Assembly (NCBI RefSeq): GCF_043770645.1
Contig: NZ_JAYVHZ010000202.1
From: Undibacterium sp.
GTDB lineage: Bacteria > Pseudomonadota > Gammaproteobacteria > Burkholderiales > Burkholderiaceae_D
DNA: 53,329 nucleotides
Reading direction: 5' to 3' (one strand)
The position numbers and the translations under genes are program-made. Positions 1-32,616 of this stretch are shown here, piece after piece (positions within the stretch are counted from its first letter, which is position 1; each line of letters starts with the position of its first letter). The notes beneath the pieces are model-generated. The model ran no database searches, was not told the origin of the DNA, and saw only the letters and a list, made by a program, of their open reading frames with translations.

Positions 1-156
1 TTTAGCCACATTAGCTACGGGAAAACAGGGATTAGATCAAGTTAAAATCAGTTTTGCAAAGCCACGAACAATTCGATTATGACGGGACGCCGAATGACAG
101 CAAGTAAGATAGGTAGACCAGTTTGCTGGCGTAAGGCGAACAGTCAGAAAATTTAA
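1..156 (+). pseudogene. C-terminal remnant of a REP-associated tyrosine (RAYT/Y1 HUH) transposase
   Basis: Frame 1 reads KATNNSIMTGRRMTASKIGRPVCWRKANSQKI*. This resembles the RAYT C-terminal ATN...GRRxxxxKxGRP tail but has frameshifts and a deletion. It abuts the TCTGACCCC end motif. Confidence 0.5.
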
Positions 157-176
157 TTTGATCTGACCCCAGTTAT
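151..176. repeat. Element end, copy 1 (ATTTAATTTGATCTGACCCCAGTTAT)
   Basis: Its reverse complement matches 3144-3169 at 25/26 nt; 164-176 is also the exact reverse complement of 1367-1379. Confidence 0.85.
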
Positions 177-204
177 CCGAGCAGAGTGCTAGGAAACTGC
201 ATCG

Positions 205-327
205 TTGAGAAATCCTATTCCATGTGCAGATACCGATACCGCAAGACTAGTTAACTCGATAGCACGCGGCCTGAATGATTTTGGTAGTTGGTTAGGTGGC
301 AAAATTCATGATGCAACAAAGAAATAA
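205..327 (+). CDS. Small 40-aa peptide, bacteriocin-like C-terminus (possibly 5'-truncated)
   Basis: TTG start 8 nt after AGGAAA; reads MRNPIPCADTDTARLVNSIARGLNDFGSWLGGKIHDATKK*. Not in the ORF track; lies directly upstream of a CPBP gene. Confidence 0.45.
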   Translation: MRNPIPCADTDTARLVNSIARGLNDFGSWLGGKIHDATKK

Positions 328-458
328 TAATATCTAATTACTATTTATTTGTGAATTTAATATGGGTCGTAGGAATAATCTCTAAAGTTATTTTTGCGAT
401 CCAAATTTCTATAAGGTTCAAGGAATATTGGGGACTTAAACAGATCGTTTTCTAACTT

Positions 459-1343
459 TTGCATAACCTCTATCCTGAATTCCAAATGACCATAAAAATG
501 GAAAAATTAACACGTATATCATTACCGTTCCCCGTAAAAAGTACTAAGGATTTATTAGTCATACTATTTTTTTGCGTGATTTTACAAGCTATATTGCAGA
601 CCTACTTGCCAAAAATATTCCCGCCATATTACCAAACAAGAATTACTCAGTATTTTCAATTCATAAGTCTTATTGCTCTTTGTATTTTCGTACTTAACTT
701 GCGAATAGGAACTTTAGTCCAACAATTGGGGGAACTTCCAAACTTCAGAGATGTAGTACAGTCGATCTTTATTGGCTTAGCCTTATTCGCTTTCACACTT
801 GGTGAAAATGCCTTAGAAGTAATTATTTTTTCTCAATTTAACTTGTCTTCTGCCTATAATCTTTGGAATTTCCACCCTGATCGACATAGTGTACTGAGTT
901 TTTTTACGCCAGCAATTCAATTTAATGTACTTTTACTTGTTGTTATAGGACCCATCGCTGAAGAATTCTTCTTCAGAGGTATGTTATTCACATCGATTGC
1001 TCATAAAAGATCGTACCTCCTTAGCTCGATCTATGTTTCTTTAGTATTTCTATTGCTTCATTTAATGAGTCAATATTTCATTAGTACATTTATCTTTTCG
1101 ATGACATTGTGTTTTTTTTATCTTATAACCCGATCTGTGTATTTATGCGCCATAGTGCATGGCACCTATAACTTTATTGCTTTCATCCATCAACATTATT
1201 TCGATATTCAATACACAAGACCAATTTCTCATATTTCTAAAATTGATTACTGGTTACCTCAACTAGCAATGTTAGTCGCTTCAAGTCTGGTGCTGGGAAT
1301 ACTCTATGTGAAATGGTATCGTAAATTCAAATTATTAGGTTAA
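459..1343 (+). CDS. CPBP family (Abi/CAAX-like) intramembrane metalloprotease
   Basis: Multi-TM protein with PIAEEFFFRG (EExxxR), FLLLH (FxxxH) and HGTYN (HxxxN) motifs; the true start may be ATG 486. Confidence 0.9.
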   Translation: MHNLYPEFQMTIKMEKLTRISLPFPVKSTKDLLVILFFCVILQAILQTYLPKIFPPYYQTRITQYFQFISLIALCIFVLNLRIGTLVQQLGELPNFRDVVQSIFIGLALFAFTLGENALEVIIFSQFNLSSAYNLWNFHPDRHSVLSFFTPAIQFNVLLLVVIGPIAEEFFFRGMLFTSIAHKRSYLLSSIYVSLVFLLLHLMSQYFISTFIFSMTLCFFYLITRSVYLCAIVHGTYNFIAFIHQHYFDIQYTRPISHISKIDYWLPQLAMLVASSLVLGILYVKWYRKFKLLG

Positions 1344-1366
1344 TTGACTCACCCATTAATAGCTGA

Positions 1367-1379
1367 ATAACTGGGGTCA
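1367..1379. repeat. Element end, partial copy 2 (ATAACTGGGGTCA)
   Basis: Perfect 13-bp inverted match to 164-176, located 23 nt after the CPBP stop. Confidence 0.75.
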
Positions 1380-1792
1380 CCCATTAGCCCCCGGTAGTCA
1401 AGTAGTCGAAACAAATACTCGCAAAAAAATGCGATCAATTTTCTGCGCCACCACACGCCTGTTTCAAAATGTCATCGTGCTTTTTGCTTCGCCGTGTGGT
1501 TGCGTTTGAATCGCACTAGTCATCCATGTGGTTCTAGCGAAAATGATGTTGCTGTTTTCGCCCAAGTAGCATTGCTACTCCAGAAGCATCTCAGTACCGC
1601 TTAGCGTCCAAGTGATGGGCAGATCTGTGGCTACCAATCCAACCCAGTGTGGCTCGCATTGCAGACGACTCATTTTAAACAAACTCATGTGATGGCAAAT
1701 ACTGCGTGTCGAATCAGTTCAGATGGTTTTGTATCCAACCCCAATTGCCAATTGCGTGCGTGGCTTGATTTTACGGGAGGGCTACACGCCCT

Positions 1793-2980
1793 TTATGACC
1801 CTTTGAAACCGACTGGTCTCGTTTTGACATCATGCAGATCGAAAAGCTGAATTTGATTGAGACGATCATAACAATCGCTGGCATTGGAAGGTATTCCAAT
1901 TTTTAGTCTTTGATCATTGGACATGATTTGCGCATGATTCACCAATACACGCATTTTGCTAATCAAATCTGCCGTATACAAAAGATGTCCCAAGGGCGTC
2001 CATTCGATCACTTTTCCGTTGCTTGATTGTTGTTGTAGCGCCTCGGTAACGAAGGGGGGGAATTCCCAACGTTCAGCAATGCGGTGGGATAGCGTAGCAG
2101 CGACTTGGGCGAAAGAAAGCCGAAAATTGTTGGAGTATTTAAATTTGGGTTCTTCGCAGACCTGATCGAGGACACGAAAAGCGATGATCATCCCTATGTT
2201 TTTCATTAACCCCGTTAGAAAAGCTTGGAATGGACTAACGCCGGCTTCCGTTGCGAGATGATGACTGGCGATTGCGCATTTTTCGGACTGCTCCCAAAGA
2301 TGTATCGCGGCACGCCGTGTATATGGACCGGAATGGAGGTTAATAATCGGGTTAAATACGACCTTAGAGATGAGCAAGCGCAAACCGTCTTCACCTAGCA
2401 TCATGATGGCACTTTCTAGACTATTGATTCGATCCGCAGGGTTATATCTTGCACTATTGACGACTTTAATAACCGAGCCAACAAGAGCCGGATCTTTCAA
2501 GATTTGCTGCGAAAGTTCGGTGATTGATATCGATTTATTGCGTAAGCTTCGGAGTAATTGCGGGATGACACTTGGCATCCTTGGAACCAACACGGCATCA
2601 TTCAGATCCGAGGTGAGTAATTCTTTTAAGGCCTTTAAGACTTTTCTCTCAGTCGCTAGATTACTACCCTCACCAGGGTGTCCCATCAGCCAGTCAAAGT
2701 AGGCGGCTTCAATGGGAATAGTGGGCGCCCAAATAACCAAGGACGGGTGGACTGGTGTCGCCGTTGTCTCAGTATAAACTTCGGATGCGACAAGTTGAGT
2801 AGTGGTATCGACCGGATCTGCTAAAGTGACTTTATCTGAGTTGAGCTCCAGTTCCTTGGCGCTTGGTTCAGCAGGTTTTGCTTCTAGTTTGATTTCTCTG
2901 GCCGGTGTCTCGCTACCACCACCTTCACTTGAAAAACCGAACCAGCGAAGGAAAATGCTATTGAATCTGCTCACCATCAC
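1793..2980 (-). CDS. HDOD domain-containing signal protein
   Basis: PRMPSVIPQLL, DPALVGSVIKVVNS, AIMMLG and FLTGLMKNIG match the HDOD pattern. Confidence 0.85.
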   Translation of the reverse strand: MMVSRFNSIFLRWFGFSSEGGGSETPAREIKLEAKPAEPSAKELELNSDKVTLADPVDTTTQLVASEVYTETTATPVHPSLVIWAPTIPIEAAYFDWLMGHPGEGSNLATERKVLKALKELLTSDLNDAVLVPRMPSVIPQLLRSLRNKSISITELSQQILKDPALVGSVIKVVNSARYNPADRINSLESAIMMLGEDGLRLLISKVVFNPIINLHSGPYTRRAAIHLWEQSEKCAIASHHLATEAGVSPFQAFLTGLMKNIGMIIAFRVLDQVCEEPKFKYSNNFRLSFAQVAATLSHRIAERWEFPPFVTEALQQQSSNGKVIEWTPLGHLLYTADLISKMRVLVNHAQIMSNDQRLKIGIPSNASDCYDRLNQIQLFDLHDVKTRPVGFKGS

Positions 2981-3143
2981 TTGCCTTTCATTGCTTGTAC
3001 TCTAATGCGATTGGACAAACCATCAAGATGTCTGAATGAAGCGGAAGTTGCTGCTTGTATTGTAGCCCGAGTTTAAATTGGCAGTACACCAAAAAATGAC
3101 GGAGATGCCGCAAGTACGAAGTCCTCCCGAGTATAACTGAAGT

Positions 3144-3169
3144 ATAACTGGGGTCAGATTAAATTAAAT
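3144..3169. repeat. Element end, copy 3 (ATAACTGGGGTCAGATTAAATTAAAT)
   Basis: Inverted match to 151-176; preceded by a local duplication AGTATAACTG-A-AGTATAACTG. Confidence 0.85.
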
Positions 3170-3211
3170 GCAGCCAACCTGATAGCTGGGGCAGGTAAAA
3201 TTTGAGTGCGC

Positions 3212-3261
3212 GCCAACACTCCACAGCACATAATTCATCGCGGAATAATCGACAAGCGTAT
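3212..3261 (+). pseudogene. N-terminal remnant of a RAYT/Y1 transposase
   Basis: Reads ANTPQHIIHRG then, after a 1-nt frameshift, NNRQA; this matches the RAYT N-terminal PxHIIQRGNNRQ motif. Confidence 0.65.
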
Positions 3262-3359
3262 CAAATTAGACCACAACCAAATTTCTCCATGCTTGGATAA
3301 TTTGACATTGAGCTGTGTTAGTCTTTCGTGCAGAAAAATCATAACGTCGAAGGTATAAC

Positions 3360-5597
3360 ATGAATTTCACGCCATTCAATCGGAAGAATATCCTAGCAAT
3401 TACGCTTTCCTTACCAACTAAAAAACTCGCCGTATTCGGGTTTCTATTTTGTACCACATTCACGATAGCGCTCGCTCACAGCGCGCCAGCCACCAATACT
3501 AAAGACCTTGCCCGTTGGCAAGCCACTGCCAAACAAGTCACGATTTCTCGCGACCAATGGGGTATTCCGCATGTCGCCGGTAAGAGTGATGCGGATGCAG
3601 TGTTTGGTCTTTTGTATGCACAAGCCGAGGACGATTTCAAACGCATCGAACTCAACTACATTAATGCGCTAGGACGGCTGTCTGAAGTCGAGGGCGAGGC
3701 TGAAATTTGGCGTGATTTGCGCATGAAGTTGTTTATACAGCCAGCCGAATTGAAGGCGCAATATGCGAAGAGCCCGGCGTGGTTAAAACAATTGATGAAC
3801 GCTTTTGCCGACGGTCTCAATTATTATTTGCACACCCATCCCGAGGTCAAACCGCGCTTGATCACCCATTTCGAACCATGGATGGCACTGGCATTTAGCG
3901 AAGGCAGTATTGGCGGCGATATCGAGACAGTCAATCTCAAGGATTTGAACGCCCTGTATGGCGATAAATTGGAATCCCTCAGTCTGGCGCAGTCGCCAAT
4001 CTTGCCCGAACCACGTGGCTCCAATGGCTTTGCGATTGCGCCTAAACTCAGCGCCAATGGTCAGGCGATGTTACTCATCAATCCCCACACGTCTTTTTAT
4101 TTCCGACCTGAAGTCCATGTCCGCAGTGAACAAGGCTTGAATGCCTATGGTGCGGTGACTTGGGGACAGTTTTTTGTATATCAGGGATTTAATCAATACA
4201 ACGGCTGGATGCATACTTCCAACGCCGCGGACGTGATCGATGAATTTGCGCTCAATATCACCAAAAAAGGGGATAAGGTTTTTTACACCTACGAAGGCCA
4301 ATTGCGCCCCTTAAAGATGGTCGAACAAACCATCCCTTATCGTTCATCGACGGGTATGGTCTCGCGTAAAGTGAAAACCTATTTTAGTCATCATGGCCCC
4401 GTGGTACGCGAAGCCAATGGTAAATGGATCGCGGTGCAATTGATGAATGAACCGATGAAGGCGTTGATGCAATCCTACCTGCGCACCAAGACGCGGGATT
4501 ACGCGGGCTTCGCTAAAGTCATGGATCTGCGCGCTAACTCGTCGAATAACACCGTGTATGCCGACAAGGATGGCAACATCGCCTATTTCCATGGCGACTT
4601 CGTGCCACGGCGCAATCCTCAACTCGATTGGACCCAACCGGTCGATGGCAGCAAGCGTAACGCCGATTGGCAAGGATTGCACGAGGTCAAAGACATTATT
4701 CACCTACTCAATCCAAAAAGCGGTTGGATACAAAACACTAATAATTGGCCATTCTCTGCGGCCGGTGTAGGCGCTGATGGCAGCAGCCCAAGTCAAAAAG
4801 ATTACCCGCGCTATATGTGGACCAATGGTGAGAACGCGCGCGGTCAGCATGCCGTCAAAGTATTACAAAATGCAAATCAACTGAATTTAGATAGTCTCAT
4901 CAAGTTAGCCTATGACAGTGAATTAACCGCTTTCGAAACCCTCTTACCACCTTTATTCAAAGCCTACGACGCCACGCCTGAGCCTGCCTTGGCCGAACAA
5001 ATCAAGAGTCTGCGAAACTGGGATTTACGCGCCACGATCAATTCGACCGCGACCTCATTAGCCATCTATTGGGCGCAGGATTTAGTCGCCCAACATAGCA
5101 AAGAAGCAGGTCATAAGCGCATTCCGGTAGTCGACTATCTACCAAGTTTGCCAGCCCCCGCCTTACTTGCGGCCTTGCAGCGCGCCAGCAATCGCCTGCA
5201 AAACGACTTTGGCAATTGGCAAACCGCTTGGGGTGACATTAACCGTTTTCAACGCTTGAGCGGCGATATTCATGCCAACTACGACGACAGCAAGCCGAGC
5301 TGGCCAGTCGCCTTCGCCTCCGGCAATTGGGGCGCTTTAGCCTCCTTCGGAATGACGGCAAAACAGACCACAAAGCGTATCTACGGTGACCGTGGTAATA
5401 GTTTTGTGGCGGTAGTCTCCTTCGGTCCACGCCTACAGGCGAAGAGTATTTTGGCAGGCGGCAATAGCGGTGATCCAAATTCGTCGCATTTCAATGATCA
5501 GAGTGAGATGTATAGCAAGGGAGAGTTTAAAGACGTCCTGTTTTATCCAGAAGACATAGCGAAAAACACCAAGCGCAAATATCATCCGGGGCAATAA
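3360..5597 (+). CDS. Penicillin acylase family Ntn-hydrolase (secreted)
   Basis: Signal peptide, RDQWGIPHV, beta-chain start SNGFAIAP, LLINPH, YADKDGNIAY and GNSGDPNSSHFNDQ. Confidence 0.93.
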   Translation: MNFTPFNRKNILAITLSLPTKKLAVFGFLFCTTFTIALAHSAPATNTKDLARWQATAKQVTISRDQWGIPHVAGKSDADAVFGLLYAQAEDDFKRIELNYINALGRLSEVEGEAEIWRDLRMKLFIQPAELKAQYAKSPAWLKQLMNAFADGLNYYLHTHPEVKPRLITHFEPWMALAFSEGSIGGDIETVNLKDLNALYGDKLESLSLAQSPILPEPRGSNGFAIAPKLSANGQAMLLINPHTSFYFRPEVHVRSEQGLNAYGAVTWGQFFVYQGFNQYNGWMHTSNAADVIDEFALNITKKGDKVFYTYEGQLRPLKMVEQTIPYRSSTGMVSRKVKTYFSHHGPVVREANGKWIAVQLMNEPMKALMQSYLRTKTRDYAGFAKVMDLRANSSNNTVYADKDGNIAYFHGDFVPRRNPQLDWTQPVDGSKRNADWQGLHEVKDIIHLLNPKSGWIQNTNNWPFSAAGVGADGSSPSQKDYPRYMWTNGENARGQHAVKVLQNANQLNLDSLIKLAYDSELTAFETLLPPLFKAYDATPEPALAEQIKSLRNWDLRATINSTATSLAIYWAQDLVAQHSKEAGHKRIPVVDYLPSLPAPALLAALQRASNRLQNDFGNWQTAWGDINRFQRLSGDIHANYDDSKPSWPVAFASGNWGALASFGMTAKQTTKRIYGDRGNSFVAVVSFGPRLQAKSILAGGNSGDPNSSHFNDQSEMYSKGEFKDVLFYPEDIAKNTKRKYHPGQ

Positions 5598-5627: not shown

Positions 5628-5665
5628 TCTACACAGCACAGCCTATTTTGCTTGTGCTGTGTAGA
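5628..5665 (+). terminator. Hairpin after the acylase (probable terminator)
   Basis: 13-bp perfect stem TCTACACAGCACA/TGTGCTGTGTAGA; the U-tract is weak. Confidence 0.55.
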
Positions 5666-32490: not shown

Positions 32491-32609
32491 AGACCTAAGC
32501 ACAACCTACTGCGCGGCCGAATTTTGAATTTCCGGTGCTCGCTGTGCTCTAGCACAGGTCCGCTCCTCAATTCAAACTTCGACCGCTCGCTACGGTTGTG
32601 CAGAGGTCT
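32491..32609. mobile_element. MITE-like palindromic element (119 bp)
   Basis: AGACCTAAGCACAACC ... GGTTGTGCAGAGGTCT (14/16 inverted match); inner arms TTTGAATT/AATTCAAA and CTGTGCT/AGCACAG. Confidence 0.7.
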
Positions 32610-32616
32610 CTGTGAT

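Follow-up and report, generated by a model that had tools for sequence, protein, structure and literature searches.

The window, the whole 53,329-nucleotide (nt) stretch analysed here, is the entire contig NZ_JAYVHZ010000202.1 (C202) of the 670-contig genome of Undibacterium sp. (GCF_043770645.1; G000). Near its left end, accessory genes lie between two transposase remnants and copies of a 26-nt inverted repeat, followed by a conserved penicillin-amidase-family gene (penA). Judged by its sequence, the 26-bp motif is the terminal inverted repeat (TIR) of a TIRtron, the unit of a transposase termed TIRYT or TnpA-Y1 subclass 2.1. In the reading we favour, the stretch holds a cluster of decayed TIRtrons within a hotspot of gene turnover; as the probable chemistry we infer that the enzyme cuts its end 6–7 nt outside GGGG and can attach it to nearly any DNA in pre-existing hotspots. 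Such joining would place foreign genes between outward-facing ends without making them precise cassettes.

TIRtron remnants in the window

The remnants comprise the following features:
20–177, plus strand: internally deleted mini-TIRtron, with a decayed left end at about 20–48, the last 22 Y1 codons at 79–144 and a right end
151–176, minus strand: right TIR, 26 nt, whose outer edge (176/177) faces the accessory genes; the same motif closes the Y1 gene of contig C133
1367–1379, plus strand: third TIR, of which the outer half is left after an IS110 insertion at GGGGT^CA
3131–3143, plus strand: partial tandem copy of the end, recognised by sequence, with ATAACTG at 3133–3139
3144–3169, plus strand: left TIR, whose outer edge faces the HDOD-domain gene; 89% identical to the left end of the element at locus L238
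3204–3258, plus strand: decayed, frameshifted 5′ fragment of a Y1 gene, ending at 3258 (nhmmer E = 4.5e-5)

The analysis confirmed the repeats and both transposase remnants. The initial annotation had described the pair at 151–176 and 3144–3169 (26 nt, identity 25/26) and an exact 13-nt third copy of its core at 1367–1379, all of which are present. The sequence TCTGACCCC has two copies in the window (0.13 expected), a number reached in 1 of 100 shuffles. A 13-nt exact inverted match alone is at chance level for 6 kb (simulations mostly gave 12–14 nt), but homology explains the copy at 1367–1379; the simulation tallies palindromes and is an unfair control for the 26-mer. Across G000 the 15-nt motif core has 13 copies on five contigs (reversed control, 0), a 14-nt form occurs in at most one copy each in 4 of 83 genomes of the genus, and in ten other genomes the majority of copies are grouped in few clusters.

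The element at 20–177 aligns end to end with a second mini-element, C581:1673–1831 (83% over 159 nt), and the end at 151–176 has its own decayed partner at about 20–48. Its segment 79–144 matches the C-terminus of the intact C133 Y1 protein (77% over 22 amino acids (aa), E = 3e-6, tblastn), as expected from the annotated RAYT-like left flank. In the same orientation, 3144–3258 comprises a left end and a gene fragment. The frameshifted RAYT N-terminus proposed for this right flank stands at the DNA level: a profile of 77 related 5′ ends matches 3217–3259 (E = 4.5e-5) with a one-base gap at the proposed frameshift, and the pairwise DNA score exceeds all of 300 shuffles. Proof at the protein level failed (tblastn, 8 aa at E = 5; protein profile, E = 0.14). 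A decayed right end at 3259–3280 was ruled out, as a contig from another study begins to match only at 3259, which makes this part host DNA.

The identity of the motif follows from intact relatives. G000 has seven PF01797 matches, and contig C133 carries an open 238-aa Y1 gene (PF01797; NHVH, WE and YIESNP) with the motif on both sides pointing at the gene, an inverted-repeat framing of the GGGGWSAS type. From 477 relatives of this gene the best 80, making up 79 loci, were kept; among these 80 the closest named relative (88%) is from Undibacterium amnicola. The motif lies upstream of the gene in 58, downstream in 45 and on both sides in 39 of the 79 loci, in counts for which some loci end too soon and the gene start is misplaced in two. 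Its conservation extends to 6–7 nt outside GGGG and falls to background beyond position −7. Because the ends flank and point at Y1 genes and conservation is bounded in this way, the 26 nt constitute a whole TIRtron end; TIRtron ends belong to transposase units and face outward. Beside Y1 genes the motif has 224 matches, compared with 4 control matches, in 1.14 Mb. None of the three outcomes that the initial annotation had named as contrary (flanks without RAYT hits, a motif not enriched next to Y1 transposases or variable genes, and identical cargo in related strains without breakpoints at the motif) occurred. Residues H60, H62, Y120, N124 and P125 are invariant in 41 Y1 sequences and both protein motifs are kept by 68 of 70 open relatives; the window's own Y1 remnants lack the enzyme core.

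Such units were named TIRtrons by Di Nocera, De Gregorio and Rocco (2013; PMC3733652). In the accessible text of Quentin et al. (2018; PMC6006769), subclass 2.1 is given with the consensus GGGG[AT][CG]A[CG], its protein motifs and its length, and is the second largest TnpA-Y1 group, found in 14.9% of strains; RAYT group 1 in the accessible text of Bertels et al. (2017; PMC5581495) is the same group. The motif, initially put forward as a new kind of site, is therefore the published TIRtron end (PMC3733652, PMC6006769). It was correctly set apart from the hairpins of repetitive extragenic palindromic (REP) sequences with a GTAG foot: the four end strands fold no better than shuffles (z of 0.09 to −0.74) and the motif contains no GTAG foot. 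GTAG-footed palindromes in many genome-wide copies, the trait of REPtrons, were likewise not seen, and the NCBIfam RAYT model scores 69 bits (cut-off 80). The structure model of the Y1 protein (mean predicted local distance difference test score (pLDDT) of 61) has TnpA-REP as its top Foldseek match (Protein Data Bank entry 4ER8; phmmer E = 7e-4 between the two proteins); the C-terminus has no Pfam helix–turn–helix match, with model helices at 158–213 (pLDDT 45–73).

A single-copy subclass 2.1-like gene of G000 (C160:19277–19996) lacks the first HUH histidine and the catalytic tyrosine, as read in the G000 copy. Matches of this kind, at 36–42%, occur in nearly all genomes of the genus (81 of 83 with some match), a distribution that suggests a domesticated, nuclease-dead form.

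Edges, accessory genes and the slot before penA

Contigs from other samples carry the same ends with other DNA joined exactly at 176, 177, 3131 and 3144, the different DNA at 3131 lying before that position. Partial tandem copies of the end precede 71 of 165 ends (1.1 in shuffles); they begin at the outer hexamer and stop after 7–30 nt. No target duplication was found in 27 of 37 elements, the longest being 4 nt. Extra copies are co-oriented in 17 of 18 cases; the counts of partial copies, duplications and extra copies include kin, which are not independent. Neighbours are co-oriented at 93 of 145 edges. The distances from these 145 edges are scattered, with a median of 94 nt (quartiles 25–186) to a stop codon and a median of 140 nt to a start codon.

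Tabulating opposed copies, as had been proposed, gave 19 outward-facing brackets with accessory genes in 18 of the 79 loci (70–5677 nt, often one or two genes); 12 of 33 bracketed genes have a Pfam match, toxin–antitoxin, STAND NTPase and helicase genes among them. No bracket with the same bounds was found elsewhere. On C154 of G000 (490–820), a 3′ half and a 5′ half stand head to tail with one base between their outer hexamers and no cargo, a cargo-free version of the arrangement in the window. The most array-like locus seen is L089:9100–19950, in which about ten TIR clusters with one gene between each run from a Y1 gene to gcvP. A joint skipping the cargo was not found in five sequencing runs, which proves nothing for rare circles. 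In viral contigs, 67 exact 15-mer matches include none near a Y1 gene and a single locus with true ends (L373:126–320), where two gene-less mini-TIRtrons of different families adjoin; the motif occurs in 8 plasmid records and in no phage.

Comparison across strains, another of the proposed checks, places breakpoints at motif edges. In the Shewanella loci L105, L077 and L082 (element 91–96% and next gene 94–96% identical), the right end is separated from the common downstream gene by nothing, 70 nt and two genes, respectively, and the inserts start and end at TIR edges. Across Shewanella the slot beyond gcvP forms a hypervariable hotspot (L077, L080, L081, L088, L089, L105, L126 and L417–L455). 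As a control, 45 Shewanella genomes were drawn evenly; five with less than 6 kb of contig left and one already in the set were passed over, and of the remaining 39 the 34 with at least 12 kb were kept. TIRYT DNA lies beyond gcvP in 7 of the 34, always in one orientation (opposite to gcvP), and locus-unique open reading frames make up 43 of 67 with the element versus 150 of 227 without it (P = 0.45). The TIRtron resides in hotspots and does not make them.

The genes between the TIRtron remnants, the insertion-sequence (IS) remnant and the anchor gene are:
178–327, plus strand: remnant of a double-glycine-leader peptide gene, with its first 15 codons gone at the TIR edge and one in-frame stop
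459–1343, plus strand: CPBP (Rce1-like) membrane protease gene (Pfam PF02517, E = 1.6e-17), accessory
1376–1744, minus strand: 3′ non-coding end of an IS110-family element that has lost its transposase gene (85% over 378 nt to the whole element L263)
1793–2980, minus strand: HDOD-domain gene (PF08668), accessory in the clade
3360–5597, plus strand: penA (PF01804), the conserved anchor right of the variable slot, in 21 of 83 genomes of the genus

The IS110 remnant, which the initial annotation had not recognised, lies between the cargo genes and splits the third end; a second Y1 family as the source of the repeat at 1367–1612 was ruled out in favour of IS110. The whole element L263 encodes a DEDD transposase (PF01548 and PF02371), and the IS110 end is present in 34 of 83 genomes of the genus (no match in Escherichia coli genomes). 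Copies were seen at L263, L315, L317, L319, L320, L322 and L326. Reconstruction of the empty site gives GGGGT^CA or GGGCT^CA for five whole copies and AGGGT^CA for a sixth, longer one (L320); 15 of 25 right ends follow exact GGGGTCA and the rest follow variants. For L326 this site coincides with the left end belonging to an intact Y1 gene; the other sites are judged by likeness. These rebuilt sites and L326 identify 1367–1379 as the outer half of a true third end. The IS110 element carries a 3′ non-coding region of 402 nt and inserts at GGGGT^CA, a site it uses in the ends of two or more TIRtron families. Guide-like words in that region, GGGGT then GATCTG, occur in order in 17 of 2000 shuffles, the words having been picked after seeing the data, and its 8-nt donor match in 131 of 2000. 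The IS110 element would have landed later in the middle end and then itself lost part.

CPBP and HDOD are accessory genes, and both are missing from the nearest relatives. The AT-rich module said to be bracketed by 164–176 and 1367–1379 does contain the CPBP gene (33% GC, with window GC at 48%; third-position GC 0.31 versus 0.55 for penA), and both of its junctions are TIR edges. Its peptide, annotated as a whole gene, is instead a 5′-cut remnant of a 62-aa gene, 86% identical to residues 20–61 of P0006 (tblastn aligns residues 16–61 from position 181). This 62-aa protein presumably has a double-glycine leader. No NCBIfam family matched the peptide and a search among longer proteins was empty. 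CPBP is found in 0 of 60 relatives, 3 of 350 family genomes (31–35%) and four database proteins. An 84% CPBP homologue and the whole peptide gene occur together on one 3978-nt contig, and the pair is intact, without TIRtron DNA, in two other genomes; 178–1343 (also L414 and L415) is a conserved two-gene module of peptide and CPBP protease, which by sequence may possibly be a bacteriocin or signal peptide with an immunity or processing enzyme. The HDOD gene (46% GC versus 33% for CPBP) is present in 43 of 83 genomes of the genus but in 1 of the 21 that share penA. TIRtron or IS DNA was found at none of 35 HDOD orthologue loci, and TIRtron DNA at none of three CPBP homologue loci.

Among 11 genomes, nine different contents occupy the slot before penA. 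Of 20 penA loci, 11 have a LytTR operon 106 to 9456 nt upstream of penA; the closest relative, G024 (penA 92%), has none there. TIRtron DNA precedes penA in 3 of 20 relatives, and most slots without it vary too, inserts being present in 7 of 9 LytTR–penA slots that lack it. At L238 of G061 the resident penA is cut off by the left edge about 295 nt into the gene; next comes a complete second penA with a distinct 5′ type, 97% like another lineage over its first 100 nt. A metagenome scan with penA for same-species alleles returned only 49–66% relatives. Among sequencing runs, two contain nearly all of the sequence and are probably its source, and three, analysed as contigs, have a small share of it. 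Two small contigs of G000, C581 and C133, show TIRtron ends and fragments interleaved with lipoprotein-like genes and a RelE/Phd-like pair. Relatives carry homologues of some C581 genes immediately before penA, and C581 may therefore be part of that slot.

Elsewhere in the window, a palindromic repeat of about 98 nt (32514–32611), common to at least ten other contigs, is probably a REP-type element, and a perfect 13-bp hairpin 3′ of penA (5628–5665) is terminator-like. Promoter, terminator and Rfam scans of the window gave matches at chance level.

Origin of the arrangement

In the mechanism we favour, the HUH tyrosine enzyme, acting in trans from the intact C133 gene, would nick 5′ of the outer hexamer, 6–7 nt outside GGGG. 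The enzyme would keep hold of the cut end as a 5′-phosphotyrosine and pass it to a free 3′-OH, much as the accessible text on TnpA-REP describes the resolution of its 5′-phosphotyrosine (PMC8266576). Each event would be one-ended, with a stopping point that varies and may lie within the element or past it, which could account for the stacked partial ends, the 5′-only and 3′-only gene fragments and the absence of target duplication. Homologous recombination, either in core genes of the flanks or in an adjacent TIRtron copy, may form the second junction of an incoming piece and would then explain the one shared orientation. The seams predict both the position of the cut and a promiscuous acceptor.

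Several points weigh against this reading. The whole mechanism is read from the seams, and many of these patterns would also arise from independent insertions of small elements beside resident genes. Flank GC skew shows no clear strand bias (30 of 50, P = 0.2), leaving the co-orientation unexplained by that test. Only one junction of the HDOD gene is a TIR edge, the other lying inside the IS110 remnant. The LytTR operon of G000 is at the end of C618, so that the window is linked to the LytTR side by synteny only.

TIRtrons and their mini-derivatives may simply insert and decay in a hotspot that genes enter by other routes, with bracketing a by-product of neighbouring insertions and deletions. 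The equal variability of the gcvP and penA slots without the element, the homologue loci free of TIRtron DNA and the self-contained element at 20–177 speak for such passive clustering. Plain insertion, however, leaves both halves of its target, and neither the 15 codons missing at 177 nor the one-sided penA cut in L238 has a matching half; the L077 and L082 inserts are edge-bounded on both sides, as is the CPBP module. We regard passive clustering as the less likely reading.

The initial annotation had proposed a candidate integrase-independent cassette locus, whose motif copies would serve as dedicated recombination sites and trade defined gene units with one another. The seams at the outer edge, the accessory nature of CPBP and HDOD and the Shewanella inserts speak for it, and the outward-facing brackets, the array at L089, the empty junction on C154 and the co-orientation of neighbours would suit cassettes. 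Yet the junctions cut genes, bracket lengths and edge-to-gene distances have no fixed spacing, no unit recurs with the same bounds, no joint skipping the cargo was found in the five runs, target duplication is lacking, and hotspots vary equally without the element; cargo also keeps no site of its own, and its homologues lack the motif. Such a system is improbable. Still less probable is a composite transposon in which two TIRtron copies moved CPBP and HDOD together: two co-oriented copies do flank 2967 nt and both genes are foreign to the clade, but a third end and the IS remnant lie between the genes, their GC contents differ, they are not neighbours elsewhere, and the right remnant lacks an outer end at 3258.

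Reaching further than decayed TIRtrons in a hotspot, we raise as a tentative possibility that TIRYTs are one-ended gene-capture recombinases: the fixed end, joined to arbitrary DNA, would supply the non-homologous junction for foreign genes entering hotspots and build polarised accessory-gene arrays without an integrase, and TIRYTs would be common enough for an RNA-guided IS110 lineage to have specialised on their ends. If true, horizontal gene gain would have a route so far overlooked, and the enzyme would offer a small tool for joining single-stranded DNA; if clustering is passive, the arrangement is ordinary mobile-element debris and such patterns need no longer be flagged as cassette systems. 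We found no TIRYT biochemistry, cargo capture or IS110 targeting of TIRtron ends in the literature, supplements and most subscription journals lying outside the search, and the term TIRYT itself appeared in just two works.

Relation to known systems

The TIRtron end is known as published; the window adds unusually clear seams in an under-studied kind of element. Published TIRtrons share with those described here a Y1 gene of about 238 aa with NHVH, WE and YIExNP, framed by non-palindromic inverted repeats with GGGGWSAS, as well as ends in dimers and clusters and the absence of REPs. The accessible passages of the TIRtron papers contain no biochemistry, and do not mention the outer edge, the stacking of partial ends, the shared orientation of copies, truncated genes or cargo flanked by outward ends. 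REPtrons, represented by TnpA-REP of E. coli (4ER8), share the HUH/Y1 core, as the phmmer and Foldseek matches show; in the accessible text of Corneloup et al. (2021; PMC8266576), TnpA-REP cleaves single-stranded DNA and passes its 5′ end to a 3′-OH. TnpA-REP needs a GTAG hairpin, whereas the end here has no hairpin and the tail of the protein is 80 aa longer.

Integron cassettes resemble the window in their accessory single genes, repeated site and variable locus, but here the bounds are imprecise and the site belongs to a transposase unit, not to a gene. A simple scan of 1–3420, which could miss degenerate sites, found no attC-like box pair, and Rfam gave no match; two integron integrases above the family cut-off lie on other contigs of G000 (C599:1203–2144 and C272:13264–14205). 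ISCR/IS91 elements move by one-ended rolling-circle transposition with an HUH Y2 enzyme and dissimilar ori and ter ends. They share with the present case the HUH chemistry, one fixed and one variable end, the lack of target duplication and the carriage of adjacent genes; they differ in the Y2 enzyme and dissimilar ends, the TIRtron having a Y1 enzyme and two equivalent inverted ends.

Laurenceau et al. (bioRxiv 10.1101/2020.03.09.984088) described variable small prochlorosin genes among which complete as well as truncated subclass 2.1 genes are scattered, and proposed a diversifying role; as here, intact and truncated genes stand among variable small genes, but no inverted repeats were found, and the authors subsequently state that causation has strong evidence in neither direction. 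The IS110 remnant at 1376–1744 has its counterparts among elements that target the ends of others. Its target, the TIRtron end GGGGT^CA, is not named in the accessible passages of PMC11187229 and PMC11208160; those of PMC11187229 list IS4321/IS5075 in Tn21 TIRs, IS1111-attC elements and ISPa11 in REPs. With these end-targeting IS110/IS1111 elements (PMC11187229, PMC11208160) it shares the DEDD transposase of its family, a long 3′ non-coding region with guide-like words and a fixed landing point in a repeated end.

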